A stretch of DNA of 64,000 nucleotides from a virus: IMG/VR virus record IMGVR_UViG_3300046115_000180. One strand, 5' to 3'. This document shows, piece by piece, positions 3,426-51,634 of the stretch. Positions within the stretch are counted from its first letter, which is position 1, and every line of letters starts with the position of its first letter. Below the pieces are notes generated by a model. It was given only the letters and a program-made list of their open reading frames with translations. It was not told the origin of the DNA and made no database searches. The position numbers were made by a program, and so were the translations under genes.

Positions 3426-3614
3426 TTAAACAGTGTCCGAGCGGTCGCGACGGGGCAACGGGGTTACCTCGGCGTCGCCGGCCGGATACAGCCGCTCGGT
3501 CAATTCTTCCCAGAAGCTGGAAAATAGCTCTGCGTAGGCAGCACGCGCGGCTGCGAGTAGCTCGGCGCTCGGTTCGAGTTCTTCGATGGGTGGTTTCTTT
3601 GATTTTTCGGACAT
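3426..3614 (-). CDS. small acidic hypothetical protein (62 aa)
   Basis: Internal ATG (MSEKSKK) lies 4 nt after the upstream TAA. The longer ORF-track start would overlap the endonuclease VII gene. Confidence 0.5.
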   Translation of the reverse strand: MSEKSKKPPIEELEPSAELLAAARAAYAELFSSFWEELTERLYPAGDAEVTPLPRRDRSDTV

Positions 3615-3618
3615 ATTT

Positions 3619-4047
3619 TTAAATCTTAGTAAGATACTCGATTGCGCGGCGTAAGTCAAGAACAGAATCACGAAAAGCCCCAAGTCCGAAATTGCAAGCA
3701 GCGCACAACAGCCCCCGAACTTTACCCGTTACGTGGTCATGATCCACATGTAGGGTTCGTTCACTCGGCTGTTTACAAATATCACAACAGCCGTTCTGAT
3801 TACGAAAACGTTCGTCATATTCTCCCAGTCTCAGCCCGTAAAGCTGCTGTCGCATTTTTTCTCGACGCGTGGTGATATAGTTCGCTTTTCGATTCGCTAA
3901 TATGCGTGGACGATTTTTCTTCCGCCATTTTGCGGCGTATAGATGGTGGCACTCCCGACAGTCAGAGCGATAGCCGTCTCTGGTTTTTACGTGCCGATTG
4001 AATTCGGTTATGGGTTTACTTTGACGACACTTTATGCAAGTTTTCAT
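3619..4047 (-). CDS. recombination endonuclease VII family protein
   Basis: LHVDHDHVTGKVRGLLCAACNFGLG matches the T4 gp49/Endonuclease_7 signature, and an N-terminal CxxC zinc motif is present. The ATG at 4047 overlaps the giant-gene stop (ATGA). Confidence 0.85.
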   Translation of the reverse strand: MKTCIKCRQSKPITEFNRHVKTRDGYRSDCRECHHLYAAKWRKKNRPRILANRKANYITTRREKMRQQLYGLRLGEYDERFRNQNGCCDICKQPSERTLHVDHDHVTGKVRGLLCAACNFGLGAFRDSVLDLRRAIEYLTKI

Positions 4048-7000
4048 CGGGTGACACGCGGCTCGACAAACGCAAACTCGGAAGTCTCGACCTTCTTCTG
4101 TCCACGACTCCGTATTTCTTTTTGCAAAGCCTCGGTCTTTTTTAGCTCTGCACGGAAGTCCCCTAGATCTAATCGAGACCACCCTTCGGAAGCCCATTTT
4201 TGTTTCTCTGCAAACCAGACGGCCGCTTGTAGCTCGCTGGGCTTCATGTTGAGTTGGCCGGCGGCATTTCGAAAAATCGATTGCGCAAACGCAAAATCCT
4301 CGTCGGAAACCCCCTGCTTATTCACCGGCATAATCCGCCAGCGCTCTTGGAAGTCGGAATACCCCAGCCGGCGCAGTGTTCGGTCCGCCCACAGGTCGAT
4401 AGTCGCTTCCGTGCCTTCGCCGAGAAGGTTTTCCACGAAGTTTGCCACCTTCGGCCCCTTGTTCTGCTCCAGCCACCGGCGCGCCGCCACCTGGAGCACC
4501 GGGATCGAGTTGATGCCGAAAAGCTTGCCGTTGCTCTGCCGCGGCTTGATGTCGTGGGTTTCGATCCATCGCGCCATGAATGCGGCCGGCGTCGGCTTGG
4601 CCGGCGGGTCAGAGATTCGGCCGGCGTTGAGTTCCCGGTTATACCAAGCGAGCCATTTATCATTCGCCATCATCGATAACCCCTGCTCAAACTTTTTGAT
4701 GTTCTGTTTGAACCGTCCGGATTTAAACCCCTCCAGCGCATCAAGCGCAAATTTGAAATTGGTTTCAACCGAGGTTTTCGGACTGGTAGCCGCTAACAGT
4801 TCAGCGAACATTCGGGCGTCGTCGCCGAAGCGTGCTTTCAACTGCTCGGAAAACTCTGAATACCACTTGCGTCCCATTTGATACTCGGGAGTGGTTTCGA
4901 CAGATCGCCCAAACTCTGCCAGTTTATCCGCATAGGTTTGAACCGGGTTGTCTGAGTCCGTAATCAACGGCGCCTCGCGCAGCTTCGACGGGATCGAGTC
5001 TGCGCTTCGTTTTGGAACGATGGCTTCTGGGAAGTGGGCCATTAACTCCGCTCTTGACATCGACGCGAGTTGCGACGTGCTCAGGAACGGCCGGCTGCCT
5101 GCAGGCATACCGCCAAACTCTTGTTGAGTCTCCTCGGCACCGGGCTGGAATTGGGTTTTTTCAAACGGATTCTTTAAAAATCGAGACATTTGACCTTCCG
5201 TAATCTTTCCCCGATTACGAAATACAGACGCAGCCTTAACGTTTCCATCTTTGTCTGTTATGTCAACGGCTATGGAGAGAGTTGAATCTTCGTGCAGGAG
5301 CGATCTTAAATAGTCGATCTGGGAGGAAGTAGGTTTTTTAGAAATTGAGACGCCTATGTGCCCCCCGAAGTCGTCGATGCCGGAAGAGGTATCAGTAATC
5401 GAGACCCTCATTGCCCCCGTAGTATCCTGAAACTCATCTATACCGGTTAGTATTCCCTCGTCAAAAAAATTTTCAACGGTATCGTCATGATACAGTAATG
5501 CGTCCGCGTCTGATTTTACTTTGTAAGCACGCCCGTCCGGCATAACCCAAGCCGAATCATACTTTTCTTTTCCAGCTTCGATAAAGGGAAGTCCGTCCGG
5601 AGTGACTTTTGATTTTGTGGGTGCGGAAAAGAAATTTTTGATGTATTCCTCTTCTCCAGGTTGAAATTGTCGCGCCCGCGCCTGGGCGATGCCGGTAACA
5701 GAGCCGCTGGCTGCGCCACCTATCGGCGCGGATTCGAGGAACGGAATCGCCGCCATTTTCTCCATGTCGGAATTCATGTTCATGAACCGCGCAGAACCGG
5801 AGTCGGCGACTGCGCTGACATCATCATTGAAAAGTTCAACTCGCAAATTGTCGATCTGATCAATGTTCGTCTCGACGAACTGCTGGATCGACGGTTTGAG
5901 TTTCGCCCAATCGGCGGCTCTTGCTTCGACGGTTAGTTGTCCGCCGTTCCTGGCGTAATTCATCCTCGCAAAGCCCTTTTTGAGTGCTTCAGTCCGGGCG
6001 CTCGGATCGTCTGCCCCGGTTTTAATCCCATACTGTTCACCGTTTTCATTCAGCCATTCATGGTGCCATTTTCCGCCGAGTTGCACCGGGGTTCCGTCCG
6101 GCAGTATCCACGCCTTTGAAAACATTCCACCAGCGGCGGGCTTTCGCAGTTTGAAATCCTCTGGCGCAGGTTGAAACTGTGCGGCAACTTCACCGGTTCC
6201 ACCAGTCGGAATTTCTTCAAACTTCTGGAGGTCGAAAATGGCGATTTGATTATTGTCGCGTCCAAGTTGAATAGCCCGTTCTCGATTCGGCTCAGTCGTT
6301 ACCACATCGAGATAGGTTTTGCCTTTGTTTGTCCACGTGCCGAGACTGTTCTCGGGCTGAGCCAACAACTCCTGGTTTGCTCGAATGTATTCGTTGATAT
6401 CTGATGCGGTGGGCGGTCCGTCAATAATCTTCGACCGCTCTGGGTGCGTCGACACCGCGAAAAACGGCTCGCCCGACAAATTCCGGTTCTGCGAAAGATT
6501 AAAAGTTGAACCGCCACCAGCTTGATGCGCGGCTAAGACTTTTTGGACGTTTTCAGGAAACAGTGGCACCGGCGGGTTATAATTCGGATCGACGTATTTT
6601 CGAATCCCGGGCACCGCAGAGCCGTCGTTGGTGTCTTCCAAATTTCGCCCGGTGGCGGCTTCATATGCCTCACGCGCGGCCTGCGCTCGGCCGATTAATT
6701 CCATGCGTTGTGAAAAATCGCCAGACTTCGATGCCTCACGTAACGCTTCCGACGTAGAGCGGAGCGCCTGAACATCTTCGAAAGTTTTCGCACTGGCGCC
6801 CAGATCCCACGCCCAGCCGGTGAGGCCGGCACCGAGTTTTCCTTTGTAATTCCCGATGGTGGCTTTCCACTCCTCCGGCGTCATCTCCGTTAGTCGACGC
6901 GCGGATTCCGCTACCGGTTGAAATTGACGAAATCCTTCAAATTCATCCGCTTCCAAATATCCTTTTTTTCCAGCGGGGGCTCGTTTTATTTCGGTCGGCA

Positions 7001-10000
7001 CCTGCTTGAGAGCTAGGGCACGGTCAAACGCCTCATCACGAGTTAAAAATTCCCCCGAGTTTGTGGTAAAACCATCTGTCACTCGTCCAAACGCGGCGTC
7101 AGGCGAAATTCCTAACTCATACGCCATGTTATCAGTGGCGATGCCGTGCCACGATCCTTCGAATACTCGACCCGTTTCGTTGTCTTTTACTGCCGCCGCT
7201 TTAACCGCACGCGGGTCGGCGCTCGGTTGAAATCCAGCCGTGAGTGTGAGGGTGTTGCCTCTGAACTGCGGCAACTCGGGCGCCAGTTCAACCTCTTTGA
7301 TATTTTCGAGGTTGAGTTTTTGGATTGCTTCAATGAAACTCGGAAGTGCTACTTTCGCCTGCGCGGCGGCTTGCTCAATTGCGGAGCGCACGGGATTCAC
7401 TTCGAGAATCGAACGGCCCTCAATGCCGAGAGCCTGTGCCCGTTCACCAGAAAATTGTGGCCGAGGCTCTACTGGCACGCTCAGCCGTTGCGGTCCCCCC
7501 GCCGTGGCGATAGAAACCTCCTGACCGGCGATGTTTAACGGTAACCGTTGTCCGACCCGGTTCGAGTCGGGCAAACGTAAGTTAAACAACATGTTGATGG
7601 TGTCCGCCTGGGGCTGCGCCAGATCAACCGCGCGCGCAGGCGTAGACTGCGGCGCGAAAAATCCACGCTCTGTTAGGTCACGTGGAACCACGAGGGGCTC
7701 ACCGGCGCCCGTTTGTCCGGCCATCTGATTGCGGACAAAGTTCTGAGTGTCCGCGAAAAGCTGTTGCCAGCCCGCGTCGGTAAAAGTTTTATTCGCGATG
7801 TCGAGTGGATATGGTGTCAGCCGCTCACCGCCGGGTAGCTCGGACAACGTGCGCGCGAGTTTGTGTGCATTGGCCGCAAAAACCTCGGGCGCCCAACCCT
7901 CGACTTGAAAACCTTTGTTTGTTTTTCGAACCCGCTCTGGAAAAAACGATTTTTCCCACAGCGACCGGGCCGCCTGGGGCATCGTTCGAAAAGCTTCGAT
8001 GATTTCACGCCGGACCGTGCGGTTACTCGTGGTTGCCGCCGCGGGTTCACCGGGCGCACTCAGGTAATTGATTCGGACGCCGGCCTGTTGTGCTATTGCT
8101 TCCGCAATTTGGCCGAGGAGTTCGCGCGGGGACCGCGTTCCGCCGATGACGGGTTCCGCCGGTGCCTGCTCCGCAAACGCTCGCGCTTCGTCGGCGACTT
8201 GCTGCCGGCCCTCGGGGCTGCTGGGCAAGCTACCGCGCGGTGGCACAGGCGTAGCCGGCTGAACATCCCCTCTCGGGGTAGTCGGCTGGGCATCGCCTTG
8301 TGCTAACTCGGCAACCCTCTCTGCAACACGAAACCTCGGTTCGATCTGACCAATCTCGGTCCGTCGTCCGGCAAGGGGTTCCCCGCCCAGGACGCTAACC
8401 ACGTTTCCAATGACTCGCGATAATCTCGGGAGAATTCCGGCCACTGGTCCGAGTCCGGCTCCGCGTTGTTTAAACGCTGCGTCGAAGTTCTCGGCCGCGA
8501 GTTCGCGCGCGATGTAGCGATCCGCTTCTGATTTTGCTTCTTCGGGTGACAGTATCTCGCGCCAGAATTGTTCCGGCCGCGCCGCGGGGTTTCGACTTTG
8601 GGCTTCATTAAAAATTCGAACGAGTTCCGGATCTGCCAAGTCCCGAACATGAGCGTCCGGCGGCGCAGAACCGGTTTCCGACTCAACCATGTTATAGACT
8701 TCTCGGAAAATCTTTTCTTTGGCGGCGTCGAGCCCCCAGCCGGACTCGTCCAGGATGACTTCTTCCCAAGCGCGATTACCGAGATCGCCGACGAGCCGCT
8801 GTGCGTAACGGGTTCCCTCGGCATCCCACTGCGGACCGTATTCCGAACGAACTAGAGCATCCAATTCAAGATTGGCGGCTTCGCCCAGCACGTCCTGGAA
8901 CGCGTGAAACGATTCGTGCGGCGTCGCCTCGACGTTGCGTGCGATGATGACGCGCCGCGGATTACCGGCTCTGTCGGGCAGACTGGTGGTGAAAAATCCT
9001 TCTTGCTGCGAAAAGGTTTTTGCCGTGGCCGCGTCGACGCCGGAGTCGAGAAGTGCCCGCTCCAATGTCGGGGCGTCTGGTGCTAGGAACACGTCAGTAT
9101 TCACCTTCGCCCCACTGGCGAACTGGCGCACCGCATTCAGGCGTGCCCGCACACCGGGCGGTGCCGAAGAGTAAGCCGCAGAGTGCATTTGGTCGAACCG
9201 GGGAAAATTTCCAGAAGACGCGGTCGGAGTGGCGACTCCGTATTCTCGTGGCGCGATCAACTGCCCGGAAATCACGCGACCGGCGATACGCTTCGCTCCG
9301 CCGGCCGCACCGAGGACGGTTCCAATGCCGACGGCACTTTCCGTTTGCTGCGGGGTTTCCGATGACACAGCAGCCAGACCGAGGTCGGCCGCAGTGCCGG
9401 AGACAATTTCTCCCACCGCGCCCGGTAGCGCGCCGGCCACATCTTTAATTCCTTGCGCCGTCGCCGACACAATGGGTTTTCCAGAAACTTGTCGGCCAAT
9501 TTCCTGGACGGTTTGCCCCGCGCGCTGAACAGTTTTTCCCACAACTTGCGCCGTTCGGCCCGCGGCAGTGCCGCCGCCCACAATCGCGAGTGCCGAAATC
9601 GGTTCCCCGGAAATCGCCGCGCCGACGGCAGATGCAACGGGTGCTGCCTTTCCGGCCACTTGCAGCGCTTGACCACCGAGTTCGGTAAGCTTGCCGGCCG
9701 CTTGCGTAATCCCTCCGGCCGCTTTTTCCGCACCAGCGGCAACGCGCGCCCCCGCACGACTGAGGATTGGGACTGCCCCAATACGCCCCAAAGGTCCAAG
9801 TGCTTTTCCAAAAAGGTAGAACGAAAACGGGTCGCCCGCGGCCAGAGCAGTGGTTTCTTCTGGACGAACGGGTTTGCCGGCTGCCGCCAATTCTGCGATA
9901 ACTTCGCCACCGACTGGCTGTAAAAATCCTCCGGCACCCCGGCCGATATCTTCCTGGGTTTCACCCGTCCCGACTGCTTTCCACAGGTCGGAAATTTTCT

Positions 10001-10568
10001 CTTGCGGAGTTTTTGCTTCAAGGGACTTTGCAACCCCGACTTCGCGAGCACCTTTTTGAATCGCGCGTTCTCCCATCTCGGCTAACCCGAAAAGCGCTTG
10101 TTCGCTGCCAGCGATGTTTTCCGCAACCCGACGCTGCGCTTGCTGCTCAAGTTCTCGGGCAATACCCTCTTGCCCGGTGAGGTCCGCGCCGATACCCATT
10201 GCGGTTTCGACTGAGGCGCTGCCATAATTCCACAATTGCTTTCCAAATCCCTTGGCCACATCCCATGCCATACCCACGGCACGTTTGGGAGTCGGTAAAT
10301 CCGAGAGCGAAAATCCGCGCTGCTTTATCAGGTTGTGCGCGTCGGCGACCTTGCGGACGATGTTCTGGTCAGCCCATAAATCCTTATTCTGGCGAAACGC
10401 GGACACCAGCTCAAAATTTTCTTTATCCGCCGACGCGAGGTCCGCCAACTCGGGAGCTGACAAATCGCGGATTGGATTAAGGGGGGCCGGACCGAATTGT
10501 GATTCGTAAGCGGCTTTTTCTTCAGCCGTGGGAGTTACTACGGGAAAATCTGTGATAGCGTTCGCCAC
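4044..10568 (-). CDS. giant multidomain virion-associated (polyvalent-type) protein, 2174 aa, with HExxH motif
   Basis: Uninterrupted 6.5-kb ORF with a GTG start. It has a Gly/Ala-rich N-terminal third, HESFH at nt 8904-8918, five QFQP linkers and repeated W(I/V)(L/M)PDG modules. Confidence 0.85.
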   Translation of the reverse strand: MANAITDFPVVTPTAEEKAAYESQFGPAPLNPIRDLSAPELADLASADKENFELVSAFRQNKDLWADQNIVRKVADAHNLIKQRGFSLSDLPTPKRAVGMAWDVAKGFGKQLWNYGSASVETAMGIGADLTGQEGIARELEQQAQRRVAENIAGSEQALFGLAEMGERAIQKGAREVGVAKSLEAKTPQEKISDLWKAVGTGETQEDIGRGAGGFLQPVGGEVIAELAAAGKPVRPEETTALAAGDPFSFYLFGKALGPLGRIGAVPILSRAGARVAAGAEKAAGGITQAAGKLTELGGQALQVAGKAAPVASAVGAAISGEPISALAIVGGGTAAGRTAQVVGKTVQRAGQTVQEIGRQVSGKPIVSATAQGIKDVAGALPGAVGEIVSGTAADLGLAAVSSETPQQTESAVGIGTVLGAAGGAKRIAGRVISGQLIAPREYGVATPTASSGNFPRFDQMHSAAYSSAPPGVRARLNAVRQFASGAKVNTDVFLAPDAPTLERALLDSGVDAATAKTFSQQEGFFTTSLPDRAGNPRRVIIARNVEATPHESFHAFQDVLGEAANLELDALVRSEYGPQWDAEGTRYAQRLVGDLGNRAWEEVILDESGWGLDAAKEKIFREVYNMVESETGSAPPDAHVRDLADPELVRIFNEAQSRNPAARPEQFWREILSPEEAKSEADRYIARELAAENFDAAFKQRGAGLGPVAGILPRLSRVIGNVVSVLGGEPLAGRRTEIGQIEPRFRVAERVAELAQGDAQPTTPRGDVQPATPVPPRGSLPSSPEGRQQVADEARAFAEQAPAEPVIGGTRSPRELLGQIAEAIAQQAGVRINYLSAPGEPAAATTSNRTVRREIIEAFRTMPQAARSLWEKSFFPERVRKTNKGFQVEGWAPEVFAANAHKLARTLSELPGGERLTPYPLDIANKTFTDAGWQQLFADTQNFVRNQMAGQTGAGEPLVVPRDLTERGFFAPQSTPARAVDLAQPQADTINMLFNLRLPDSNRVGQRLPLNIAGQEVSIATAGGPQRLSVPVEPRPQFSGERAQALGIEGRSILEVNPVRSAIEQAAAQAKVALPSFIEAIQKLNLENIKEVELAPELPQFRGNTLTLTAGFQPSADPRAVKAAAVKDNETGRVFEGSWHGIATDNMAYELGISPDAAFGRVTDGFTTNSGEFLTRDEAFDRALALKQVPTEIKRAPAGKKGYLEADEFEGFRQFQPVAESARRLTEMTPEEWKATIGNYKGKLGAGLTGWAWDLGASAKTFEDVQALRSTSEALREASKSGDFSQRMELIGRAQAAREAYEAATGRNLEDTNDGSAVPGIRKYVDPNYNPPVPLFPENVQKVLAAHQAGGGSTFNLSQNRNLSGEPFFAVSTHPERSKIIDGPPTASDINEYIRANQELLAQPENSLGTWTNKGKTYLDVVTTEPNRERAIQLGRDNNQIAIFDLQKFEEIPTGGTGEVAAQFQPAPEDFKLRKPAAGGMFSKAWILPDGTPVQLGGKWHHEWLNENGEQYGIKTGADDPSARTEALKKGFARMNYARNGGQLTVEARAADWAKLKPSIQQFVETNIDQIDNLRVELFNDDVSAVADSGSARFMNMNSDMEKMAAIPFLESAPIGGAASGSVTGIAQARARQFQPGEEEYIKNFFSAPTKSKVTPDGLPFIEAGKEKYDSAWVMPDGRAYKVKSDADALLYHDDTVENFFDEGILTGIDEFQDTTGAMRVSITDTSSGIDDFGGHIGVSISKKPTSSQIDYLRSLLHEDSTLSIAVDITDKDGNVKAASVFRNRGKITEGQMSRFLKNPFEKTQFQPGAEETQQEFGGMPAGSRPFLSTSQLASMSRAELMAHFPEAIVPKRSADSIPSKLREAPLITDSDNPVQTYADKLAEFGRSVETTPEYQMGRKWYSEFSEQLKARFGDDARMFAELLAATSPKTSVETNFKFALDALEGFKSGRFKQNIKKFEQGLSMMANDKWLAWYNRELNAGRISDPPAKPTPAAFMARWIETHDIKPRQSNGKLFGINSIPVLQVAARRWLEQNKGPKVANFVENLLGEGTEATIDLWADRTLRRLGYSDFQERWRIMPVNKQGVSDEDFAFAQSIFRNAAGQLNMKPSELQAAVWFAEKQKWASEGWSRLDLGDFRAELKKTEALQKEIRSRGQKKVETSEFAFVEPRVTR

Positions 10569-10837
10569 TATTCTTCCTCAACAGTCCAATATAACCCGGA
10601 ATCACGGCGATTGCCGCTGTCGATTTCAAAATATTTTCCATTTTGATAAAAATGCATACCCTTATCACCTGTGTATACGGGAAAACAATTGTGCCAAGTT
10701 TTGATGGGTTTCGTCCCCATTTTCGAGTAAAGCGTAACGCAGAACCGACGAGGTTCGGGACGGGCTGTTGGTTGTGTCGGTCGGCTGCAACCGACCGTCA
10801 ATAACAGACCCAAGGCAAAAAAGAAGGTATATTTCAT
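10568..10837 (-). CDS. putative lipoprotein (89 aa)
   Basis: MKYTFFFALGLLLTVGC is a signal peptide with a lipobox-like LTVGC. The stop overlaps the giant-gene GTG (TAGTG). Confidence 0.6.
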   Translation of the reverse strand: MKYTFFFALGLLLTVGCSRPTQPTARPEPRRFCVTLYSKMGTKPIKTWHNCFPVYTGDKGMHFYQNGKYFEIDSGNRRDSGLYWTVEEE

Positions 10838-10878
10838 TCGAGACAGAATACTCTTTTTCTTTTTTAATGTCAAGATTT

Positions 10879-12330
10879 TTATTGGACTAACCGATATGTT
10901 CCATTCGCATCGCGGACGATGCGTCGACCCGTGCTGGGCAGCGATAACACTCCGCCGGACGCACCCGGGGCAGTCGCTGCCGGTTGCTGGGCCGGTGTAA
11001 TCATCAAGTCTTGAAAACCGGAAACATCGTAGCCGGCGCGTTGCCAGCTATCGATTTTGTTATTAAGCGATCCGCGGGTTTCGTTGAATAAGTCGGAGAT
11101 CTTTTGATGACCGACTTTCGGGCTATCCCGAAGCGACGGGATCACGCCTTCGTAGCGGGCGACATCCTTATCCGACAACACGCCGGTTTCGTTATACGTG
11201 CCCTTGGCAATTGGCGCCAGGATGGCGGTTGCGTCGCGTTGGAAAGCCGCCACTTTGGTGTTCCACTCTTTAGACTTCGCCCAGGTTGCGAGTCGGCCTT
11301 GAATGAACCCCACGAGATTCGGTTCAGAGTTCACCAAATCGGTATATCGGTCTTGCAGCCGCTTGGCAATAGTGCCCGCCTGACGACTCATGGCAATATC
11401 TTTGACGCCTTCCGCGGGAACAAACTTGTCCGGCGCGTCCTTCGCCTTTGCCGGTCCAAGAAAAGTGGTTGCGCCCGCGGCCGGCTCAACGAGAGCGGAG
11501 GGACTGGTTGATGCGGTTTTCGGCTGGACCAACGCATTCATGTCCGCGCCCGTCATAACGGCGGCTTGCGCGGGCTCAACGCCAAATTGTTCGACTGCCG
11601 CTGCTCGCTGTGCAGGGGTTACTTCGATTGCAGTAACTGTAGCCGCTGGCGCCGGTGCGGTAACGGCGGCGCCGGGGGCAATCTGTGAAAAATTAGAAAC
11701 CGCTTGCGTCGCGAGTGATCGTTCGAGTTGCGGCGTGATCAACTCCCCCTGCTTATTGAACTTGAAAAGCTGCGTGCCGTCGGGGGACTTTTCCCAATGT
11801 GCCGGAGTCAGACGTTCTTTCGCGCGCTCTTTTTGTTGCTTCCATTCGAAAAGCTGCAATCCGAGTTGCGCACGTTTTCCGTAGTCCGGGGCTCCCTCCG
11901 TCGTGACGGGCGCCGAGACTCCACCTTCGGGAGCCAGAGCTTTGAAGTATTCCACGCCAGGACCATATTTTTGGACCGCCTGTTGTTCTTCAAGCTGTGT
12001 TGCCGCAAGTGCGGCCGTCGGCTCGACGAGAGGTAATTGTGCTCCGGCTTGCGCGCCGACGAGACCGGCTTGTGCGGCAGCGGCATCACGTTGCGCTGCG
12101 CGCGCGGCGATGGCTTCGGGAGATACCTGCTCAGAGAGTAGTTGCACCTCGGCTTTTTGCTTAAGCTGTGCGGATTCTCCGCTGCGTTGAATAATGTCGT
12201 CCGCGGTTATGAACCCAGAACGAAAAGCATTAGCCAAATTTTCGACCGCGCGCGGTTCCACCACGGCCCGGCCAATTAAATCCGATGGATTAATTGATCC
12301 AAGTCGGTCTGTTGCATCGCCCATTGCCAT
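10879..12330 (-). CDS. hypothetical virion protein, Ala/Gln-rich (internal/ejection-protein-like)
   Basis: 483-aa ORF in the structural block. The call rests on composition and position only. Confidence 0.55.
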   Translation of the reverse strand: MAMGDATDRLGSINPSDLIGRAVVEPRAVENLANAFRSGFITADDIIQRSGESAQLKQKAEVQLLSEQVSPEAIAARAAQRDAAAAQAGLVGAQAGAQLPLVEPTAALAATQLEEQQAVQKYGPGVEYFKALAPEGGVSAPVTTEGAPDYGKRAQLGLQLFEWKQQKERAKERLTPAHWEKSPDGTQLFKFNKQGELITPQLERSLATQAVSNFSQIAPGAAVTAPAPAATVTAIEVTPAQRAAAVEQFGVEPAQAAVMTGADMNALVQPKTASTSPSALVEPAAGATTFLGPAKAKDAPDKFVPAEGVKDIAMSRQAGTIAKRLQDRYTDLVNSEPNLVGFIQGRLATWAKSKEWNTKVAAFQRDATAILAPIAKGTYNETGVLSDKDVARYEGVIPSLRDSPKVGHQKISDLFNETRGSLNNKIDSWQRAGYDVSGFQDLMITPAQQPAATAPGASGGVLSLPSTGRRIVRDANGTYRLVQ

Positions 12331-12333
12331 AAA

Positions 12334-12606
12334 TTATGATACCATCTCGCCTTTTTCAAAGCTAGCGTTTTGGTAGAAAAAACTTTCGCAAGCCTTCAAA
12401 AACTGGGGGCGACTTATGTCGACCGATTTATTGGTTTTCGAGTTTCGAAATATATACCGTCGTTTCTGCGGTCCACCCCCGAGTTTTCTAGTGGAAAATG
12501 ACAGCAGAGTATCCCAATCTCCCCATTGATTAACACTGTTATCTTGTTTTAGCGGTGCCTTTCGCTGGGCGTATTCCAAATTAAAGGGGGAGGTAAGTTT
12601 TTTCAT
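12334..12606 (-). CDS. hypothetical protein (90 aa)
   Basis: ORF tightly coupled to its neighbours (TAATTTATG junctions). Confidence 0.45.
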   Translation of the reverse strand: MKKLTSPFNLEYAQRKAPLKQDNSVNQWGDWDTLLSFSTRKLGGGPQKRRYIFRNSKTNKSVDISRPQFLKACESFFYQNASFEKGEMVS

Positions 12607-12609
12607 AAA

Positions 12610-13137
12610 TTAATAAAGCCCTGGGCTGAGCCAACCGGAATTGATTGGTGAAATCGCCGGAGCGCCGAACTGCTGTGCGCGAAGCGCAAAAGTGTTATCT
12701 TGAAACGGGGTCAGCGGGTCACGATAGCCAAGTCCGGTAGGCAGCCCGGAGAGTGACCACGGAAGCATCGCTGCCTGACGCGCCTGGGACGCTTGGATCT
12801 GGCCAGGTAACTCTTGAGCCGCTTTCGTCGCGGCGTTTTGCAATTCGAGTCGCTCTGTGTTCGCCAGCGCTTGATTCGCATACGCCTGAGCGAGTGCCGG
12901 CGGGAGTGAGGGCGACGCTTGGGGTGTCAGAATTCGAGAGATGAGGTCCGCGTATGGGTTCAGTTGGTTGCTCAGAAAAGACGCCGGATTGTTGAGGAAC
13001 GTCGGTTGTGAGCTACTGTCGGAAACGGGCACGGATGACCCGATCTGAGTCATCGTCGGCGCACGCCCGGGGTTCTGCACTCGCGGGTTTACGACTGAGC
13101 CGATACTCGGAACAATACTAGCTGCTGTCCAGGCCAT
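12610..13137 (-). CDS. hypothetical protein (~175 aa)
   Basis: ATG at 13137 lies 4 nt after the upstream TAA. The ORF-track start at 13149 is TTG inside the upstream gene. Confidence 0.5.
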   Translation of the reverse strand: MAWTAASIVPSIGSVVNPRVQNPGRAPTMTQIGSSVPVSDSSSQPTFLNNPASFLSNQLNPYADLISRILTPQASPSLPPALAQAYANQALANTERLELQNAATKAAQELPGQIQASQARQAAMLPWSLSGLPTGLGYRDPLTPFQDNTFALRAQQFGAPAISPINSGWLSPGLY

Positions 13138-13141
13138 AAAA

Positions 13142-14050
13142 TTAAGCAAAGGCTAACGCACTCGCCACATTTGACGAAGTCGACGGCGAGGTCAATGAAT
13201 TCCACGCACTACCAACGTATGGCGCTAGTGCCCTTGTCCCGGCGCCAATCGCCGAGTTCCAAGCACCCGCTTGGTTAAGGGCTCCGGCCATGCCGATATC
13301 GGCAGATTGAGACGCTAATTGATTCGTCGCCCCTACGCGTGCTAACCAAAGTTTTGCGACATCACCGCCGCTGAGCCCGGCTTGCGGCACCATCGCCGCA
13401 CTTTGCGCGAGGGCGCCCTGTGCGCCCTGCAACGTGTTCAACTGCATTGACGATAAATTGGGAAATAACGTGCCGAGGATTTGCTGTCGGCGTCCTTCGA
13501 GGTTCGACGCGGCTTCCGTGAGGGCGGCTGCGCGTTCCTGGCGCTGTGCCTGTAGTTGAACACCCGCGGACCCGATGATCTGACGGAGTAGTTGACCGGA
13601 GGTTCCACGCGAACCAGTAGCGGCGCCGACGGTCTCACCGGAGCGCTCAAGTCCGGCCTGGACGAGTTCCGCCTGGACATCCGGCGGCAGTGTTGCACCA
13701 AGTCGTAATTCCTGTAAGGCCGCATCGACGAGAGCGTTTTTCGCCTCGTTCATCCCGGGCGTGCCGGCTATCGCCTCTTGGGCGGCAACCTGGGCGACTT
13801 GATCGGCCGGGCCCGAGCCGAGGCCGAGAACTTGCTGAAGTATTTTATCCTCTGCGGCGTAACGGGTCGCGAGTGCCGCCGGATCGGTAACCCCCTGAAG
13901 GGCTAACTGAGATTGTGCACGTGCTATATCGGCTTGAAGCGCTTCACGGTTTACGCGACTGGGTTCAAGTTGATCGAAAACAAAATCGCGCTGACGCTCC
14001 AGCGCATCGATCTGCAACTGGGTTGCCTCTTTAATGGCCGCCGCCTGCAT
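13142..14050 (-). CDS. hypothetical Ala/Gln-rich coiled-coil-like virion protein
   Basis: 302-aa ORF with low-complexity A/Q/L composition typical of internal virion proteins. Confidence 0.55.
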   Translation of the reverse strand: MQAAAIKEATQLQIDALERQRDFVFDQLEPSRVNREALQADIARAQSQLALQGVTDPAALATRYAAEDKILQQVLGLGSGPADQVAQVAAQEAIAGTPGMNEAKNALVDAALQELRLGATLPPDVQAELVQAGLERSGETVGAATGSRGTSGQLLRQIIGSAGVQLQAQRQERAAALTEAASNLEGRRQQILGTLFPNLSSMQLNTLQGAQGALAQSAAMVPQAGLSGGDVAKLWLARVGATNQLASQSADIGMAGALNQAGAWNSAIGAGTRALAPYVGSAWNSLTSPSTSSNVASALAFA

Positions 14051-14107
14051 TGCCGCAGACGCTACTTGACCTACTGCTCCAAAAATATCTGCGATAACGT
14101 CTTTCTT

Positions 14108-15057: not shown

Positions 15058-15066
15058 ACAGTGCCA

Positions 15067-15891: not shown

Positions 15892-15900
15892 AAAAATTCC

Positions 15901-37635: not shown

Positions 37636-37667
37636 GAAACAAAAATGCCCACCTTTTGGGTGGGCAT
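37636..37667 (-). terminator. intrinsic terminator closing the recombinase cassette
   Basis: Perfect 9-bp stem ATGCCCACC/GGTGGGCAT with a 5-nt loop, followed on the minus strand by TTTTTGTTT. Confidence 0.75.
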
Positions 37668-39191: not shown

Positions 39192-39215
39192 ACACCTGAA
39201 CAGTGCGCCGTTCGG

Positions 39216-39892: not shown

Positions 39893-39928
39893 TTCACCCA
39901 AACAGTGCCGAGTTTACCAAAATTTTTC

Positions 39929-44242: not shown

Positions 44243-44713
44243 TTAAACATTGCCCCAATCGTCGAACTCAACTGCTGGTCCGGTTAATCCACCCCAATTC
44301 TCGAAACACACAACAGGGCCGGAAAGCCCGCCCCAGTTATCCATGCCAGCACAATCTTCTGGAACCGCGCTAATAGCCTGAACAATTCGAAAAAGTAAAT
44401 TGTAGATTGAATCGCCGGGACGAAAACTCCCTGGGGAAAGAATATCGAGAATCCGCTTAATGGTATTCCACTGCCAGTCGCCGCAGTGGCAAGCGTCATC
44501 GCCGAGTGCCCGGAGGACTTTTTGCCAGAGTTCGGGTAGCGTATCGCCCGGCCGCGGAGTCCCGCCGTAATGCTCTACCAATTCCCAGACCAGATTGTAT
44601 TCCCGCTCGTCCGGGCAGCCGAACTCAGCACCCACTGATTGTAACCACTTTCGAAGTAGCACGACCACGCTGTCCCCAGGACGAGCCTCAGTCGAAGAAT
44701 AGCTGCACGGCAT
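44243..44713 (-). CDS. hypothetical protein with C-terminal NWGGL(S/T)GP repeats
   Basis: DNWGGLSGPVVCFENWGGLTGPAVEFDDWGNV. The ATG lies 7 nt after GCACTGTT. Confidence 0.5.
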   Translation of the reverse strand: MPCSYSSTEARPGDSVVVLLRKWLQSVGAEFGCPDEREYNLVWELVEHYGGTPRPGDTLPELWQKVLRALGDDACHCGDWQWNTIKRILDILSPGSFRPGDSIYNLLFRIVQAISAVPEDCAGMDNWGGLSGPVVCFENWGGLTGPAVEFDDWGNV

Positions 44714-44755
44714 ACATTAGAACAGTGCCGCGCAGGGGTCAAAATGATTACGGTA

Positions 44756-45609: not shown

Positions 45610-45858
45610 TCACCTCCCTGCCGCCGCCGCTTCGAGTTCCTCGCGTGCCTGTCCTAAAAGATAGAACGCGTTTCGAACGCGAGCGTCTAAGTGGGTAGAC
45701 CCCGCCTCCATCCGTTCGAGAAACCGCATCAGCAGTCCCACATTCTGGGCACGCCGGGCGGCGAGTTGCTCGAAGGACTCCGCGGCCGGCGAAATGAAAT
45801 GCTCGGCCGAGTGCTCTATGAGCCGTTCGATGGGGCAAGGTGAGGTGTTTACGTTCAT
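45610..45858 (-). CDS. hypothetical protein (82 aa)
   Basis: ATGA-coupled ORF. Confidence 0.45.
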   Translation of the reverse strand: MNVNTSPCPIERLIEHSAEHFISPAAESFEQLAARRAQNVGLLMRFLERMEAGSTHLDARVRNAFYLLGQAREELEAAAAGR

Positions 45859-46184
45859 GTGGGATTCGATTCATTCGTTCGCTGAAAAAGTTCAACTGCC
45901 GTCCACGGATCGCGCGGGCCGACGAGCACCGACTTAATGGTTGGGCCGAGGAGAATCCGGCCGGGGTTGATGAGGGACGGGACGATCTGCCGGGTCGACA
46001 GTGTCGGTTGCAGAGTTTCGAAAGATTCCGGTGGGGCGTTGTCCGGGTCCGGGTGCGCCGTCGCGCGGGCCGAGAAAATACCGCACGGAGGAGCCGGGTC
46101 CGTCCAGAAAAATACGACGGTGCCGTCAGAGAGTGTCTTGGTGTTCAGTTCCGGGGCCGGGCACGGGACATTTACTTCGTTCAT
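45855..46184 (-). CDS. hypothetical protein (109 aa)
   Basis: The internal ATG (MNEVNVP) lies 7 nt after GCACTGTT and 2 nt after the upstream TAA. Confidence 0.5.
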   Translation of the reverse strand: MNEVNVPCPAPELNTKTLSDGTVVFFWTDPAPPCGIFSARATAHPDPDNAPPESFETLQPTLSTRQIVPSLINPGRILLGPTIKSVLVGPRDPWTAVELFQRTNESNPT

Positions 46185-46186: not shown

Positions 46187-46450
46187 TTACAAACAGTGCT
46201 CCGATTCCGTCCATGGGTCGCCCCACCAACGACGAATTCGAAAAAATTGGTATTCAGAACTGGCTGGAAGCACGACCCGATAGTCGGAACCTTCAATCGA
46301 GTATGGCCCGGGGACTTCATACCATACATCGGAACCCGGTGACTGTGCTTCCAGCACATCTCGAACGGGCATCAACGCCCCCGACTCGTCTGGGACTCGA
46401 CATTCGAAGGTCCAGAGCACGGTAACGGCGGACAGCAGTGCGGCAATCAT
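46187..46450 (-). CDS. small membrane protein (87 aa)
   Basis: MIAALLSAVTVLW is an N-terminal hydrophobic helix. The start is ATGA-coupled. Confidence 0.5.
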   Translation of the reverse strand: MIAALLSAVTVLWTFECRVPDESGALMPVRDVLEAQSPGSDVWYEVPGPYSIEGSDYRVVLPASSEYQFFRIRRWWGDPWTESEHCL

Positions 46451-47884: not shown

Positions 47885-48529
47885 CTACATATGGCTTGGG
47901 TGAAAGGACCCAATTCCGCTTACCCTACGCTTTGCCCATACGACACGCATACACTCGGCAATATGTGCCCGAAGCGCAGGCGTTTTTGCCGCAGACATTT
48001 TTCGCCTCGTCTGCTCCGACTTCGGACGGTTGAGGAGCGCCGCACTCAATTTAACACGCGTTTCCGGCAACGTAGGTCGGCCCGTGCTCCGTTGTATCAA
48101 CAGGGCTTTGCAATGGGGCGGCATTGGCCTTCCCTTGCGTCCGCGGCGCGAGTCTGACATCTTTCGACGTGTTTCCAAAGAAAGCTGCTTGCCGCGCCAA
48201 TAGCCCATCTTATCGCGCATTTCCGCCGTAAAAACTGAGACCCCGTCACCGCCGTCCGTTCCATTCACCAAACCATTGCCCAGACTTCGAAAATATTCGA
48301 TATATGCCGCTTCCAAGGACAACGCCTCGGCGTCCGCTACCTCGTCGATAATTTCCAACCCAGGCACTTTCCCATCACGGGTCAACGCGCGTATCCAGTT
48401 CGTCTTGTGCCCACGTTCTTTGCACAACAGGTGTGCTCTGAAACGCCGTTTCGGCCGACGGGATTTCCCAACGTATCGAATCAGCCCGGTATCCGGATCA
48501 ACCAGCCCGTAAATATACGCGATACTCAT
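47885..48529 (-). CDS. GIY-YIG homing endonuclease with NUMOD3-like repeats
   Basis: IYGLVDPDTGLIRYVGKS...RFRAH is a GIY-YIG motif. Repeated ETRRKMS / ETRVKLS / QTRRKMS segments follow. Confidence 0.85.
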   Translation of the reverse strand: MSIAYIYGLVDPDTGLIRYVGKSRRPKRRFRAHLLCKERGHKTNWIRALTRDGKVPGLEIIDEVADAEALSLEAAYIEYFRSLGNGLVNGTDGGDGVSVFTAEMRDKMGYWRGKQLSLETRRKMSDSRRGRKGRPMPPHCKALLIQRSTGRPTLPETRVKLSAALLNRPKSEQTRRKMSAAKTPALRAHIAECMRVVWAKRRVSGIGSFHPSHM

Positions 48530-49188
48530 TCCTTATCGTAGGGAGTGGCGACCTTCGCTTCTGCGCGCACGGTAGTAACCGCCAATGCTTGCGCCGTGCT
48601 TACTTGAGCATCGAACAACGCCGCGCGCGGAGATCGCGATAGCTTCACTTCGGCCATGGCTTTTGCAATACGCGCGTGTAGCTCGCCGCCAGCAGTGCTA
48701 TCATCTTCTGCCGTCTTACGCTTTACCCGCTCCGGCGCGGTATCGTTAAGTGCTTGATACGTAAGGGCTTGTGCTTTTTCCATCGCACTCGCAAGATCGG
48801 CCAGGGCTCGGGTGGACAGCTTACGAAACGCTCCGTCCTTGTTCTCGCTCATGAGTAAGTAAGACTCAAACTCCTCAGCACCCATACCCGTAATTCGTAA
48901 CAAAACCCGCTCCAAGAAGAGACGAAAACGGTGGGCCATTACGAAGTTGAGGGCTCGGTTGATTGCGCGCTCAATATCGCCAGGGCGCCCTGACTTCTTC
49001 AACTCGATAATCGACTTAAGCCGCTCATTCCAGCCTTCCTCGTCTACCATCCGCAGGACTTCCACCGGCCGGACGTTGAGGGCGTGGGCGGTTTTCTCCA
49101 GGTCGCCGCAGAAGGTTGCATACAGCAGGAACGCCTGCTCACGGTCAAAAACAACCTCTTGGGCGTCTTCGGGGTTCGGTATTGGCAT
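48526..49188 (-). CDS. hypothetical protein (220 aa), first gene of minus-strand block
   Basis: The ATG (MPIPNPED) lies 7 nt after GCACTGTT. The ORF-track start lies inside the divergent promoter. Confidence 0.55.
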   Translation of the reverse strand: MPIPNPEDAQEVVFDREQAFLLYATFCGDLEKTAHALNVRPVEVLRMVDEEGWNERLKSIIELKKSGRPGDIERAINRALNFVMAHRFRLFLERVLLRITGMGAEEFESYLLMSENKDGAFRKLSTRALADLASAMEKAQALTYQALNDTAPERVKRKTAEDDSTAGGELHARIAKAMAEVKLSRSPRAALFDAQVSTAQALAVTTVRAEAKVATPYDKE

Positions 49189-49203
49189 ATACAAAAACAG
49201 TGC

Positions 49204-49232
49204 TTGACTTTTTCTCGTGGGTGCCGATAATA
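49204..49232 (+). promoter_or_regulatory. sigma70-type early promoter P1
   Basis: TTGACT, a 17-nt spacer, ATAATA, then a ~23-nt leader containing GTTTAAAC before the ATG at 49256. Confidence 0.6.
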
Positions 49233-49255: not shown

Positions 49256-49495
49256 ATGACCCTCAAACTAAAATATCACAGCGTCACCGCCAACGGGGTA
49301 ATCACGCGCTCCATTGTTGAAGACCGCTTCTTCCAAACCTTTCGCCGGTTTGGTGGTCGCGTGCTCGTTGCGTGGCAAGAGCGCATCCACACGGGTGAAT
49401 ACCACAACGTTTTAGACCGCGCGCGCATCGACGCACTCGAAACCGCATTTAACACGCTGCCCACCGCAACACCGTCACAACTCCAAAACTGGTAA
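49256..49495 (+). CDS. hypothetical early protein (79 aa)
   Basis: The ATG follows the P1 leader. The ORF-track start lies inside the promoter. Confidence 0.5.
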   Translation: MTLKLKYHSVTANGVITRSIVEDRFFQTFRRFGGRVLVAWQERIHTGEYHNVLDRARIDALETAFNTLPTATPSQLQNW

Positions 49496-49500
49496 AAATT

Positions 49501-49677
49501 ATGCTCGTCAACAAAATCATCTCTTACGAATCCGGCGAAATGGACGAAGCCGAAACCATCGAATTCTTTCAAGAACTTATCAACACCGGGCTCGCGTGGC
49601 AACTCCAGGGCCATTACGGTCGCACTGCCGCTGCGCTCATTGAAGCCGGCGAATGTTCTCCTAAAGTTTCTGCTTGA
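49501..49677 (+). CDS. small acidic hypothetical protein (58 aa)
   Basis: Not in the ORF track. MLVNKIISYESGEMDEAETIEFFQELINTGLAWQLQGHYGR... Confidence 0.45.
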   Translation: MLVNKIISYESGEMDEAETIEFFQELINTGLAWQLQGHYGRTAAALIEAGECSPKVSA

Positions 49678-49713
49678 CCTGCCGATAATAATATTGTAAC
49701 GTTTAAACAGCAT

Positions 49714-49917
49714 ATGAGCAAAAAGCACTTCATCGCAATCGCCGCCACAATCCGAAGTCAAATTGATTCAGAGTCCCACCTTATCGCCGGACCTCGCAAA
49801 ACGGTCCGACTGGAAACAATCGCAGAAAGCGCAAACCGTCTCGCAGACGTGTTCGCCAACGAAAACCCGCGATTCGACCGGGCTCGGTTCCTGGCCGCGT
49901 GTGGCATCAACCGATAA
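49714..49917 (+). CDS. hypothetical early protein (67 aa)
   Basis: The ATG follows a second copy of the P1 -10/leader sequence. Confidence 0.5.
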   Translation: MSKKHFIAIAATIRSQIDSESHLIAGPRKTVRLETIAESANRLADVFANENPRFDRARFLAACGINR

Positions 49918-49924
49918 CACGACC

Positions 49925-50251
49925 ATGGACTTTTTCACACACCAATCGGACGGCGGCATCGTCATGCAGGGCAGCGCGCTCTGCGAAGCCGACCAATCCC
50001 AAGTGCTGCGCGCCTACGTCCACCGATATACCGGAGACCACCGGCCGAACTGGGTGGACGATAAAACGCCGCTCCATTTCAAACACGACAACGAGTGGTT
50101 GGATAACACCTACTTCGCAGTCAACCATCACGGGCGTCTACGCGCCTCGGTTCGCGACTGCTACAGCCGTCCCACATTCCCAAACCATCCTGAGCATCGC
50201 TCAAAAAATCCAAACCCGTTCCAGTGCGGTATTCACAACGTCAACCCATGA
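49925..50251 (+). CDS. hypothetical protein (108 aa)
   Basis: Internal ATG (MDFFTHQ) lies just after the upstream stop. Confidence 0.45.
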   Translation: MDFFTHQSDGGIVMQGSALCEADQSQVLRAYVHRYTGDHRPNWVDDKTPLHFKHDNEWLDNTYFAVNHHGRLRASVRDCYSRPTFPNHPEHRSKNPNPFQCGIHNVNP

Positions 50252-50571
50252 AAAAACTCAGAATCACAATCGGCACGGGCTGCGGCCTGCGCAAAGATAG
50301 CACGCCCATCAGCGGGTTCGACCGCGCGCAGATGACGATGCTCACCAAAAGTTTTCTGTTATCGAACTGCGGCGGCTACACAATAACAACCGCGGACGGC
50401 GGCTGGCGCGATGCAGAAGGCACAGACTGGGAGGAGCCCAGCATGGGGTTCGTCGTCATCATCGACGAGGGCAAGATAATCCCCGAGGCACTGGCGCAAT
50501 TTGTGCGAGACACGTTCGAGCAGGTTTGCGTGATGCTGACCGTCGAAGAAGTAAATACCCAAATGATATGA
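50248..50571 (+). CDS. hypothetical protein (107 aa)
   Basis: ATGA-coupled start (MKKLRIT). Confidence 0.5.
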   Translation: MKKLRITIGTGCGLRKDSTPISGFDRAQMTMLTKSFLLSNCGGYTITTADGGWRDAEGTDWEEPSMGFVVIIDEGKIIPEALAQFVRDTFEQVCVMLTVEEVNTQMI

Positions 50572-50672
50572 AAAACCGAAAAGCAGTAGATGATGCGGTC
50601 GCGATAGCGATTGTCGCGAGTGTCCTGGGAATCGTCGCGGGAGTTTTTCTAATCCTACTCTCCCATATATGA
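50568..50672 (+). CDS. tiny membrane peptide (34 aa)
   Basis: Not in the ORF track. ATGA-coupled at both ends, with hydrophobic core AIAIVASVLGIVAGVFLILL. Confidence 0.35.
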   Translation: MKNRKAVDDAVAIAIVASVLGIVAGVFLILLSHI

Positions 50673-50929
50673 AAAAACTGTTTCAACAAATCGACGACCT
50701 GTGCGTCAACGCGAACATGCACGGGATTTGCACCGCGCTGCACCTGCCATGGTTCGGCAGTCCAAACGCAATCGGCATCCGCCTGGGCGGACGCGAATAC
50801 GTATTGCCCGGAGCTACTGACCGGCTTTGGCGCCGGAAGTGGCGGAAGTTCCTGACGGACCACGTTGACGACGTTGCCAATAATCTCGCCGCTGCGCCTG
50901 CCGCTGCTCGCGACGGGCAATCCGATTGA
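50669..50929 (+). CDS. hypothetical protein (86 aa)
   Basis: ATGA-coupled ORF. Confidence 0.45.
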   Translation: MKKLFQQIDDLCVNANMHGICTALHLPWFGSPNAIGIRLGGREYVLPGATDRLWRRKWRKFLTDHVDDVANNLAAAPAAARDGQSD

Positions 50930-50975
50930 GGCGTTTGACATCCGGCGGCATGCGCTCGAATAGTTTACTGCTCAT

Positions 50976-51206
50976 ATGCTAACAGTGCAATCCATCATGG
51001 AGAAAGCGAAGGCGGACTCGCTGGTCACCGGCGACAGATTCGTGCCCGGCCGACCAGGGCCGAACAGCCGCTGGTGCGTCATCGACGCGCACCTTGAAAA
51101 CGTGATTGAGTCGGGGCTGACCTTCGATGTTGCCTTGGACCACGCCGAGCGGTTTTCCCGCCTGGACAAAGTCCAACACGAGGATGCGTATCGCAACCAT
51201 CGATAA
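50976..51206 (+). CDS. hypothetical protein (76 aa)
   Basis: Last ORF in the early-gene run before the 430-nt non-coding region. Confidence 0.45.
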   Translation: MLTVQSIMEKAKADSLVTGDRFVPGRPGPNSRWCVIDAHLENVIESGLTFDVALDHAERFSRLDKVQHEDAYRNHR

Positions 51207-51634
51207 TTTTCCGGCCGGCGTAAAAACCTTGCGAATGTGAGGACAACGAGAAATCGGGGTATGCGCAAGCAATGCGGGCCACCTGCCGCAGAACTGTCCT
51301 TTTCGCCGGCCGGATTAGAAAAATACCCTGCGGAGCAGTCGGCTTAATTAATTTCGAGTTTAATCTGGATAAAATTCATCATGTTACTTACCCCTCTTTA
51401 TCAAGAGAAAAAAAATAGAATATATATAGGGGGGGAGGGGGAACCACGCCCATTAGGGAGCACTGGAGAAACCGCCTTCCAAGGACTGGACCCCGCTTTT
51501 TTTTGGTGGCCCGAGTTGTCTCTCAAAAATATACACCGTAAACTTAATAACGACGAACCGGCGAACCGACCCACCGGCGAAATAAAATCCGAAATTCTGA
51601 CAAAACCTGACTCCACCCCTGCACTGTTAGCTGT

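Follow-up and report, generated by a model that had tools for sequence, protein, structure and literature searches.

The 8-mer GCACTGTT stands a few nucleotides (nt) ahead of many start codons in the phage DNA analysed here, a stretch of 64,000 nt from IMG/VR virus record IMGVR_UViG_3300046115_000180 that we call the window. The 8-mer, with its core cACTnTT, most likely serves as the -10 element in promoters recognized by a sigma factor that the phage itself encodes. We hold it probable that GCACTGTT marks promoters that depend on this phage sigma, lack a -35 element and give leaderless middle and late mRNAs. A single-element, phage-specific promoter in a leaderless placement had been put forward in an original prediction for this DNA, and it is favoured by every comparative test run here, all of them made on sequence.

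The window contains 12 exact copies of GCACTGTT, where 100 dinucleotide-preserving shuffles give 1.37 on average and 6 at most; 65 matches with one mismatch compare with 40.3 +/- 6.5. The comparison with a shuffled background, proposed earlier as a check, thus finds the motif enriched. The earlier count had been 11 copies; all 11 coordinates are correct, and a twelfth copy, at 34726-34733 on the minus strand, had been overlooked. Three one-mismatch copies described with them, ACACTGTT at 3429-3436 and 20582-20589 and GCGCTGTT at 25680-25687, are indeed present, all on the minus strand. Eleven of the 12 exact copies lie on the minus strand, which is the coding strand from 2790 to 49188. Ten of the 12 are followed 3-9 nt downstream by an ATG or GTG that opens an open reading frame (ORF) of at least 45 amino acids (aa), compared with 7.5% of random positions (binomial p = 3e-10). 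The bias in strand and distance that had been claimed is therefore real, whereas the companion claim that exact copies point the same way as the gene downstream fails at copy 50981-50988, which is antisense to plus-strand genes.

The spacers from GCACTGTT to the start codon measure 3, 5, 5, 6, 6, 7, 7, 7, 7, 8, 13 and 36 nt. Nine of the 12 fall at 5-8 nt, and these dominant spacers equal the usual distance from a -10 hexamer to the transcription start (+1). The 10 start-proximal copies precede 8 ATG and 2 GTG codons with spacers of 3-8 nt, and none of these spacers contains GGAG, GAGG or AGGA, in agreement with the earlier remark that they carry nothing resembling a Shine-Dalgarno (SD) sequence. 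These copies have the layout by which leaderless mRNAs are recognized, namely a -10 element about 5-8 nt before AUG or GUG and no SD sequence. The 8-10 nt on the 3' side of 16 sites of the motif are C-poor and A/T-rich. Upstream of the 8-mer the 16 sites share no information, and in this genome no -35 hexamer accompanies them. No other oriented, start-proximal word is over-represented in the genome, and a literature search for the 8-mer returned primer sequences only.

At both ends the window matches JGI contig Ga0364925_0000003 (72,634 bp) with 100% identity, and it therefore makes up 64 kb of a genome that is circularly permuted and about 72.5 kb long; the remaining segment, 8,507 bp, lies between window positions 64000 and 1. 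Encoded outside the window, in a gene that ends 63 nt before position 1, is a 233-aa protein of the sigma70 family (P0005; L118:10001-10702). P0005 scores 55.1 bits against NCBIfam model TIGR02937 (cutoff 42.9) over residues 36-225, a close homolog matches Pfam Sigma70_r4 with E = 5.8e-14, and region 4 is closest to that of FliA/WhiG. The protein possesses region 2 and region 4, the pair of domains expected of the sigma-70 family; it has no region 3 domain, and residues 116-156 form a disordered acidic linker. An AlphaFold (AF2) model with a predicted local distance difference test score (pLDDT) of 77.7 consists of two helical domains, and among the top 50 matches listed by Foldseek against the PDB nearly all are bacterial sigma-factor chains.

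The sigma gene resides in the same genome as the motif, as expected of a cognate factor, and this co-occurrence suggests the pairing of P0005 with GCACTGTT. Relatives whose sigma is 33-43% identical keep the gene order PolA, 737-aa protein, sigma, 180-aa protein, and at about 13 of 18 loci the motif lies in the 3' end of the sigma gene, 4-9 nt before the ATG of the next gene. The motif before the ortholog of window gene 2790-3419 is kept in 10 sigma-carrying relatives. The best-conserved segment in 18 sigmas, RFFAYAK(P/V)Y(V/I)RG, aligns with part of region 2.3/2.4 of FliA, the part of sigma70-family proteins that contacts and melts the -10 element. A scan of metagenomes with the sigma alignment returned only 10 loci. 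Covariation between sigma residues and the base at the fourth core position of the motif (G, A or T) was rejected as evidence, being inseparable from phylogeny in 18 sequences. Neither an RNA polymerase (RNAP) nor a second sigma was found by Pfam, PHROGs and PDB sequence searches among the scanned proteins of the window and the 8.5-kb segment, a scan that covered only part of the genes between about 10.9 and 32 kb.

A search for the same motif and spacing in related phages had also been suggested, and the motif proves to be kept at orthologous starts in relatives from soil metagenomes. The starts of the 677-aa gene (34457) and the 114-aa gene (20575) were projected onto IMG/VR loci. In nearly every lineage a motif variant occupies the corresponding position ahead of these two genes, at a distance of 2-14 nt from the ATG; for the 677-aa gene this position is orthologous to copy 34461-34468. 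The variants in relatives are GCACTGTT, GCACTATT, ACACTGTT, GTAACTGTT, GTAACTATT, GAGACTATT, CTGACTATT, GTCACTGTT and GGTAACTATCT. The pattern ACTNTT followed after 2-14 nt by ATG or GTG occurs in 15 of 47 distinct upstream regions of 677-aa orthologs and in none of 47 coding controls; the corresponding figures for the 114-aa orthologs are 21 of 43 and 3 of 43. The top words unrelated to the start codon in an unbiased k-mer test were ACTGTT (12/47 vs 2/94) and ACTATT (16/43 vs 0/86). We take the family core to be cACTnTT, the bases upstream of it being specific to each lineage.

The most distant clade, with a capsid about 70% identical, uses ACTTCT, CCTCTT or CCTATT as its element. There, at least 14 distinct sites have the form TTGAC[AC]-N17/18-(A/C)CTnYT, followed after 2-9 nt (mostly 3-7) by ATG or GTG. 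This is the spacing of a bacterial promoter of sigma70 type, one in which the motif would take the -10 position and transcription would begin on or beside the start codon.

In one relative (L100, IMG/VR contig 3300047160_007655) eight copies of GGTAACTATCT occur in 22 kb, at 2057-21036, most of them followed by ATG or GTG after 4-15 nt; by its makeup GGTAACTATCT reads as a lineage-specific extension of the same promoter core. Several other words were rejected as signals. The top raw 8-mers of the relatives, GGATTTTC, AACTTTTC, GCGCGAGC and GGAGCAAC, are coding or tandem repeats rather than start-proximal signals, and naive k-mer counts before every ATG proved too noisy for use as a test. Enrichment of CACCGTCA is explained by a 9-nt tandem repeat, (GCACCGTCA)n on the plus strand, at 22083-22140 inside the minus-strand gene 21689-22288, which would encode a collagen-like Gly-X-Y stretch.

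The genome has two arms. Leftward (minus-strand) genes span 2790 to 49188 and include those for tail-fibre-like proteins, an Mtd_N-domain protein and the 2174-aa protein. Rightward genes run from 49257 through the segment outside the window to window position 2863; their products are small early proteins, an SbcC-like ATPase, a helicase, a PD-(D/E)XK nuclease, PolA, a 737-aa primase-like protein and an exonuclease. Promoter-like sites of sigma70 type (Table 1) are enriched in 34-54 kb (26 vs 12.3 +/- 4.1) and not in the structural region 14-34 kb (8 vs 12.6). The best of them precede small early-type genes and leave leaders of 25-40 nt. Since these early promoters are canonical, the primary sigma of the host appears conventional, and GCACTGTT is therefore something else.

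The placement of individual copies also fits a promoter: past a terminator-like hairpin, at the divergence point of the arms and after a long non-coding stretch. At the divergence point, the minus-strand copy at 49196 stands back to back with the TTGACT at 49204. The succession of terminator, motif at 37608 and GTG at 37601 noted in the original prediction is confirmed, with the hairpin at 37645-37667, and is kept in relative L081. Copy 39708 would, at 36 nt from the next start, yield a transcript with a leader, and the motif therefore does not require a neighbouring ATG. Copy 50981-50988 (within GCACTGTTagcatATG, 50975-50988) faces into the plus-strand early cluster 49257-50929 and is antisense because 49257-51206 carries plus-strand genes; it may be a late antisense promoter that aids the shut-off of early genes, or else the first promoter from which transcription reads into the leftward arm.

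The mechanism that we propose begins with early genes transcribed by the host primary sigma from promoters of TTGACA/TATAAT type, the rightward arm, read early, supplying the phage sigma. Host RNAP core with this two-domain sigma70-family factor would then bind the single element without a -35 hexamer, melt the C-poor, A/T-rich 5-8 nt past it, and begin transcription either on the A of the start codon or no more than about 0-3 nt away. In this manner leaderless or near-leaderless mRNAs would be made for the leftward arm's middle and late genes, and for a small number of further genes, from about 16 transcription units spread along that arm. Promoters that lack a -35 element are an accepted subclass, exemplified by extended -10 and T4 late promoters. 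Leaderless mRNAs are proposed because of the distance from promoter to ATG. We infer recognition of the motif by P0005 and not by some other factor, a +1 at the start codon, and a middle or late timing for the genes behind the motif. Within the core cACTnTT, the A is invariant and a T stands four bases on (register CACTGT); A, C and T are the most conserved bases.

Several observations weigh against this account. The link between sigma and motif consists of co-occurrence and co-conservation, both of which shared ancestry alone could yield. Region 4 of P0005 is well conserved, yet the 16 sites carry no -35 information, and the clade that does have TTGACA is represented by its promoter sites and not by its sigma gene. 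The element is not A/T-rich, and its register relative to TATAAT is ambiguous: CACTGT supplies A-11 and T-7, ACTGTT does not. With the modal 7-nt spacer, a fixed start could fall 1-2 nt ahead of the ATG instead of on it. One of the copies runs antisense to genes, and two have doubtful ORFs downstream. A bolder version would extend the scheme to the whole, widespread soil-phage family, with a minimal sigma, one non-A/T-rich element of 7-8 bp, no -35 contact, +1 on the start codon, mostly leaderless late mRNAs, and antisense shut-off of early genes from copy 50981; on this version, leaderless expression throughout the phage would be a purposeful strategy in a host with little use for SD sequences. 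As a whole we regard it as tentative and rather doubtful.

The rival that survives best, though we judge it unlikely, is a promoter element read by a sigma factor of the host, either an alternative sigma such as one of the extracytoplasmic function (ECF) type or a primary sigma that some phage co-factor has remodelled; other, unrecognized promoters would then be left to the phage sigma. The host-like TTGACA -35 hexamer with which the distant clade pairs its element speaks for this, as does the correlative nature of the link between phage sigma and motif. A capsid scan of a genome collection hit one 8.6-kb contig only, in a bin named 'uncultured Rhodoferax', which is too weak for naming a host. 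The phage sigma would then need promoters of its own, however, and no second oriented, over-represented motif was found for it to read. The early promoters indicate a host primary sigma that works on canonical TTGACA/GATAAT, which the motif does not resemble, and the motif and the region 2 segment of the phage sigma are conserved together over deep divergence.

Less probable still is a signal that acts on RNA, whether a site for a translational regulator like RegA of T4, a non-SD enhancer, or an endoribonuclease site before the AUG; a translation enhancer and an RNA-processing site had been the alternatives offered earlier. The motif does occupy the place expected of a ribosome-binding site, some copies share sequence with the 3' ends of preceding genes in the manner of intra-operon signals, and the phage hardly uses SD sequences, SD-like 4-mers preceding 12 of 60 genes as against 9.8% of random positions. 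(A+T makes up 65-75% of the final 8 nt ahead of starts, compared with 45% of the genome.) A -35 hexamer at a fixed distance is meaningless on RNA, and the TTGACA found 17-18 bp upstream in distant relatives therefore argues against every version of this reading. The motif stands before only about 16 of roughly 95 genes, and copies lie past a terminator-like hairpin and at the head of divergent units, where a promoter is needed; the next start is 36 nt away from one copy, and a second copy runs antisense to genes. By reading of the sequence, GCACUGUU has no complementarity to the conserved CCUCC of the anti-SD, and an Rfam scan found no family.

A promoter for an unrecognized phage RNAP, for example one within the 2174-aa or the 758-aa protein after the manner of the N4-like and crAss-like virion RNAPs, seems very improbable. 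Most of the phage proteins scanned have no family assignment, the 2174-aa protein resembles the crAss-like virion RNAP in size, and short, highly conserved promoters are typical of phage RNAPs. Nevertheless, no RNAP domain was detected among the scanned proteins by Pfam, PHROGs or PDB sequence search, the TTGACA-N17 geometry and the encoded sigma indicate a bacterial holoenzyme, and virion RNAPs read early genes, whereas the motif precedes structural genes. Just as faint is the chance that the motif is an operator, the regulator binding site of the original prediction, at which an activator or repressor overlaps core promoters: a conserved 8-mer at fixed positions that is not A/T-rich would suit one, but the motif is non-palindromic and single at each site, has no other promoter elements around it, sits in the distant clade precisely where a -10 element belongs with respect to TTGACA, and is a poorer operator candidate in this genome than the separate palindrome GTTTAAAC.

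Three known promoter classes were rejected on direct comparison. Since region 4 of the phage sigma is closest to FliA, GCCGATAA at the early promoters was examined as a possible sigma28/FliA-type signal, but the TTGACT -35 and the 16-nt spacer identify these sites as ordinary promoters of sigma70 type. For sigma54 (GGCAC) the motif is too near the ATG and no TTGC element is present, and the resemblance to the Deinococcus TACACT is in a different register.

Table 1. Motif sites, sigma70-type promoter-like sites and associated features, in window coordinates.
Feature	Position	Strand	Context
GCACTGTT	51621-51628	+	6-nt spacer agctgt, ATG 51635; 130-aa gene 51635-52027; about 430 nt of non-coding DNA upstream
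GCACTGTT	50981-50988	-	5-nt spacer, ATG 50975; 53-aa ORF without coding signal
GCACTGTT	49196-49203	-	7-nt spacer tttgtat, ATG 49188; 220-aa gene 48526-49188; heads leftward arm
GCACTGTT	46192-46199	-	7-nt spacer, ATG 46184; 109-aa gene 45855-46184
GCACTGTT	44721-44728	-	7-nt spacer, ATG 44713; 156-aa gene 44243-44713; 42-nt intergenic gap
GCACTGTT	39901-39908	-	8-nt spacer, ATG 39892; 63-aa gene 39701-39892; just past stop of 758-aa gene
GCACTGTT	39708-39715	-	overlaps end of 63-aa gene; next start ATG 39671, 36 nt downstream; arrangement also in L081
GCACTGTT	39199-39206	-	7-nt spacer caggtgt, ATG 39191; 56-aa gene; site identical in L081
GCACTGTT	37608-37615	-	6-nt spacer, GTG 37601; 138-aa gene 37185-37601; about 30 nt past terminator-like hairpin
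GCACTGTT	34726-34733	-	inside 3' end of gene 34709-35272; ATG 34712 13 nt downstream, opening an 84-aa ORF of weak coding score
GCACTGTT	34461-34468	-	3 nt before ATG 34457 or 9 nt before in-frame ATG 34451; 677-aa gene
GCACTGTT	15057-15064	-	5-nt spacer, GTG 15051; 144-aa gene 14617-15051
Variant ACACTGTT	3429-3436	-	9-nt spacer, ATG 3419; 209-aa gene, last of leftward arm
Variant GGACTGTT	10580-10587	-	11-nt spacer, GTG 10568; 2174-aa gene
Variant ACACTGTT	20582-20589	-	6-nt spacer, ATG 20575; 114-aa gene; orthologs in relatives have ACTGTT or ACTATT
Variant GAACTGTT	23645-23652	-	8-nt spacer, GTG 23636; 370-aa tail-fibre-like gene
Variant GCGCTGTT	25680-25687	-	one-mismatch copy, ahead of putative capsid gene
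Bidirectional intrinsic-terminator-like hairpin	37645-37667		ATGCCCACC...GGTGGGCAT, then T-run; directly upstream of motif 37608
Sigma70-type promoter TTGACT-N16-GATAAT	49204-49231	+	before plus-strand early genes
Near-identical TTGACT-N16-GATAAT	47433-47406	-	sigma70-type
TTGACA-N16-TACAAT	53366-53393	+	sigma70-type
TTGACA-N18-AATAGT	50935-50964	+	sigma70-type
Further sigma70-type site	38951-38924	-	
3' part of 183-aa gene	1-524	+	directly after sigma gene

In the 72.5-kb genome the palindrome GTTTAAAC is found 13 times, where an order-3 Markov model predicts about 1 occurrence. Its sites in the window are 8468, 19265, 31215, 37770, 44241, 49243, 49701, 52582, 58465 and 63076, and three more lie outside. 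At each of the early promoters 49204 and 49676 a site falls in the interval that separates the -10 hexamer from the ATG, and one site, outside the window, falls within the spacer of TTGACAgggcGTTTAAACgtggTATACT. The palindrome is also among the top 8-mers of relatives L091 and L092. The palindrome is thus a candidate for the operator to which a dimeric repressor of early promoters would bind.

In the stretch 25662-25826 (minus strand), upstream of the 441-aa putative capsid gene, whose leader measures about 150 nt, another one-mismatch copy of the motif, GCACTGAT at 25819-25826, lies at the stop of the preceding gene. Relatives show a conserved hairpin followed by GTTAG(A/G)AA, 12-20 nt before the capsid ATG, which looks like a separate element of the 5' untranslated region serving the most abundant protein. 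The long non-coding stretch at 51300-51630, which separates the early cluster from gene 51635, includes an A-run, a tract of alternating AT and a G-run (aaaaaaaatagaatatatataggggggaggggg); it may be a replication origin or a packaging-related region. Within ORF 53433-54248 on the plus strand, CCGCCTACTGC occurs seven times in 53914-54125 (at 53914, 53926, 53983, 54049, 54091, 54103 and 54115), partly in 12-nt phase; these repeats could be replication-origin iterons or a peptide repeat.

Minus-strand genes of other kinds include a GIY-YIG/NUMOD3 homing endonuclease (47885-48529), a serine recombinase of the resolvase family (38004-38792), and two neighbouring nucleotide-sugar epimerase genes amid the structural genes (25820-27678). 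ARAGORN calls an overlong 89-nt tRNA-Gly(GCC) at 53089-53177 on the plus strand, a doubtful call because no Rfam tRNA match attained the gathering score.

Against 50,697 deposited phage genomes, neither megablast of 36-52 kb nor tblastn of the capsid and of the sigma gave a match. IMG/VR holds more than 100 related contigs, up to 70-75 kb in length, whose record names point to soil and rhizosphere metagenomes. The 758-aa protein has no relatives in IMG/VR, the helicase protein no exact match on record, and a single-protein scan with the 737-aa protein found the closest relative only.

The analysis offers a candidate pair of promoter and sigma for a common, uncharacterised family of soil phages. 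The motif marks true starts and transcription units where gene finders based on SD sequences misplace starts. If +1 does lie on the AUG, this would be a phage with a largely leaderless middle and late programme, which bears on translation initiation in SD-poor hosts. Synthetic circuits use parts of this kind, a short orthogonal promoter plus a 233-aa sigma.

Among known systems, the late promoters of T4 have the consensus TATAAATA and are read by gp55, a factor without region 4, with gp33 and the gp45 clamp. The likeness to T4 drawn in the original prediction is sound in its logic, with a single element in the -10 region, no -35, and a phage sigma on host core acting across late and structural genes. 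It does not extend to the parts: the element here is GCACTGTT / cACTnTT rather than TATAAATA, P0005, unlike gp55, retains a conserved region 4, and T4 late mRNAs have leaders with SD sequences where the element here abuts the start codon. Its consensus and its region 4 place the phage outside the T4 late system. The Thermus phages phiYS40 and P23-45 also have middle and late promoters without -35 recognition, and many of their mRNAs are leaderless. In those phages small proteins redirect host sigma A to extended -10, TATAAT-like elements, whereas a dedicated phage sigma and a non-canonical element are proposed here.

The sigma factors of Bacillus phage SPO1 use two-element promoters (-35 and -10) and give mRNAs with leaders, and these proteins are unrelated to the sigma described here. 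SPO1 itself runs a sigma cascade (gp28, gp33/34; PMC13401047). Phage phiEco32 and Salmonella phage 7-11 encode their own sigma, and their promoters, few and well conserved, can be recognized by sequence comparison (PMC4331800). They share with this phage an own sigma and the division into host-type early and phage-type middle and late promoters (PMC4331800), but neither the sigmas nor the phages are related in sequence, the consensus differs, and adjacency to start codons is not described there.

The placement of the motif resembles that found in Deinococcus-Thermus, where a -10-type hexamer 6-7 bp before the ORF replaces the ribosome-binding site, transcription starts at the start codon and the mRNAs are leaderless (PMC12340547). 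The spacing is the same as the 5-8 nt observed here. There, however, the element is TANNNT, used by the host's own housekeeping sigma at about a third of host genes (PMC12340547), while here a phage-specific, non-TANNNT 8-mer would be read by a phage sigma, and canonical promoters with leaders are present as well. Phage sigma factors, promoters without a -35 element, and leaderless mRNAs are all established already, and the phage therefore does not represent a new principle. What is new, on the sequence comparisons made here, is the consensus, a dedicated phage sigma paired with systematic adjacency to start codons, and the occurrence of both in a phage family without a cultured member.

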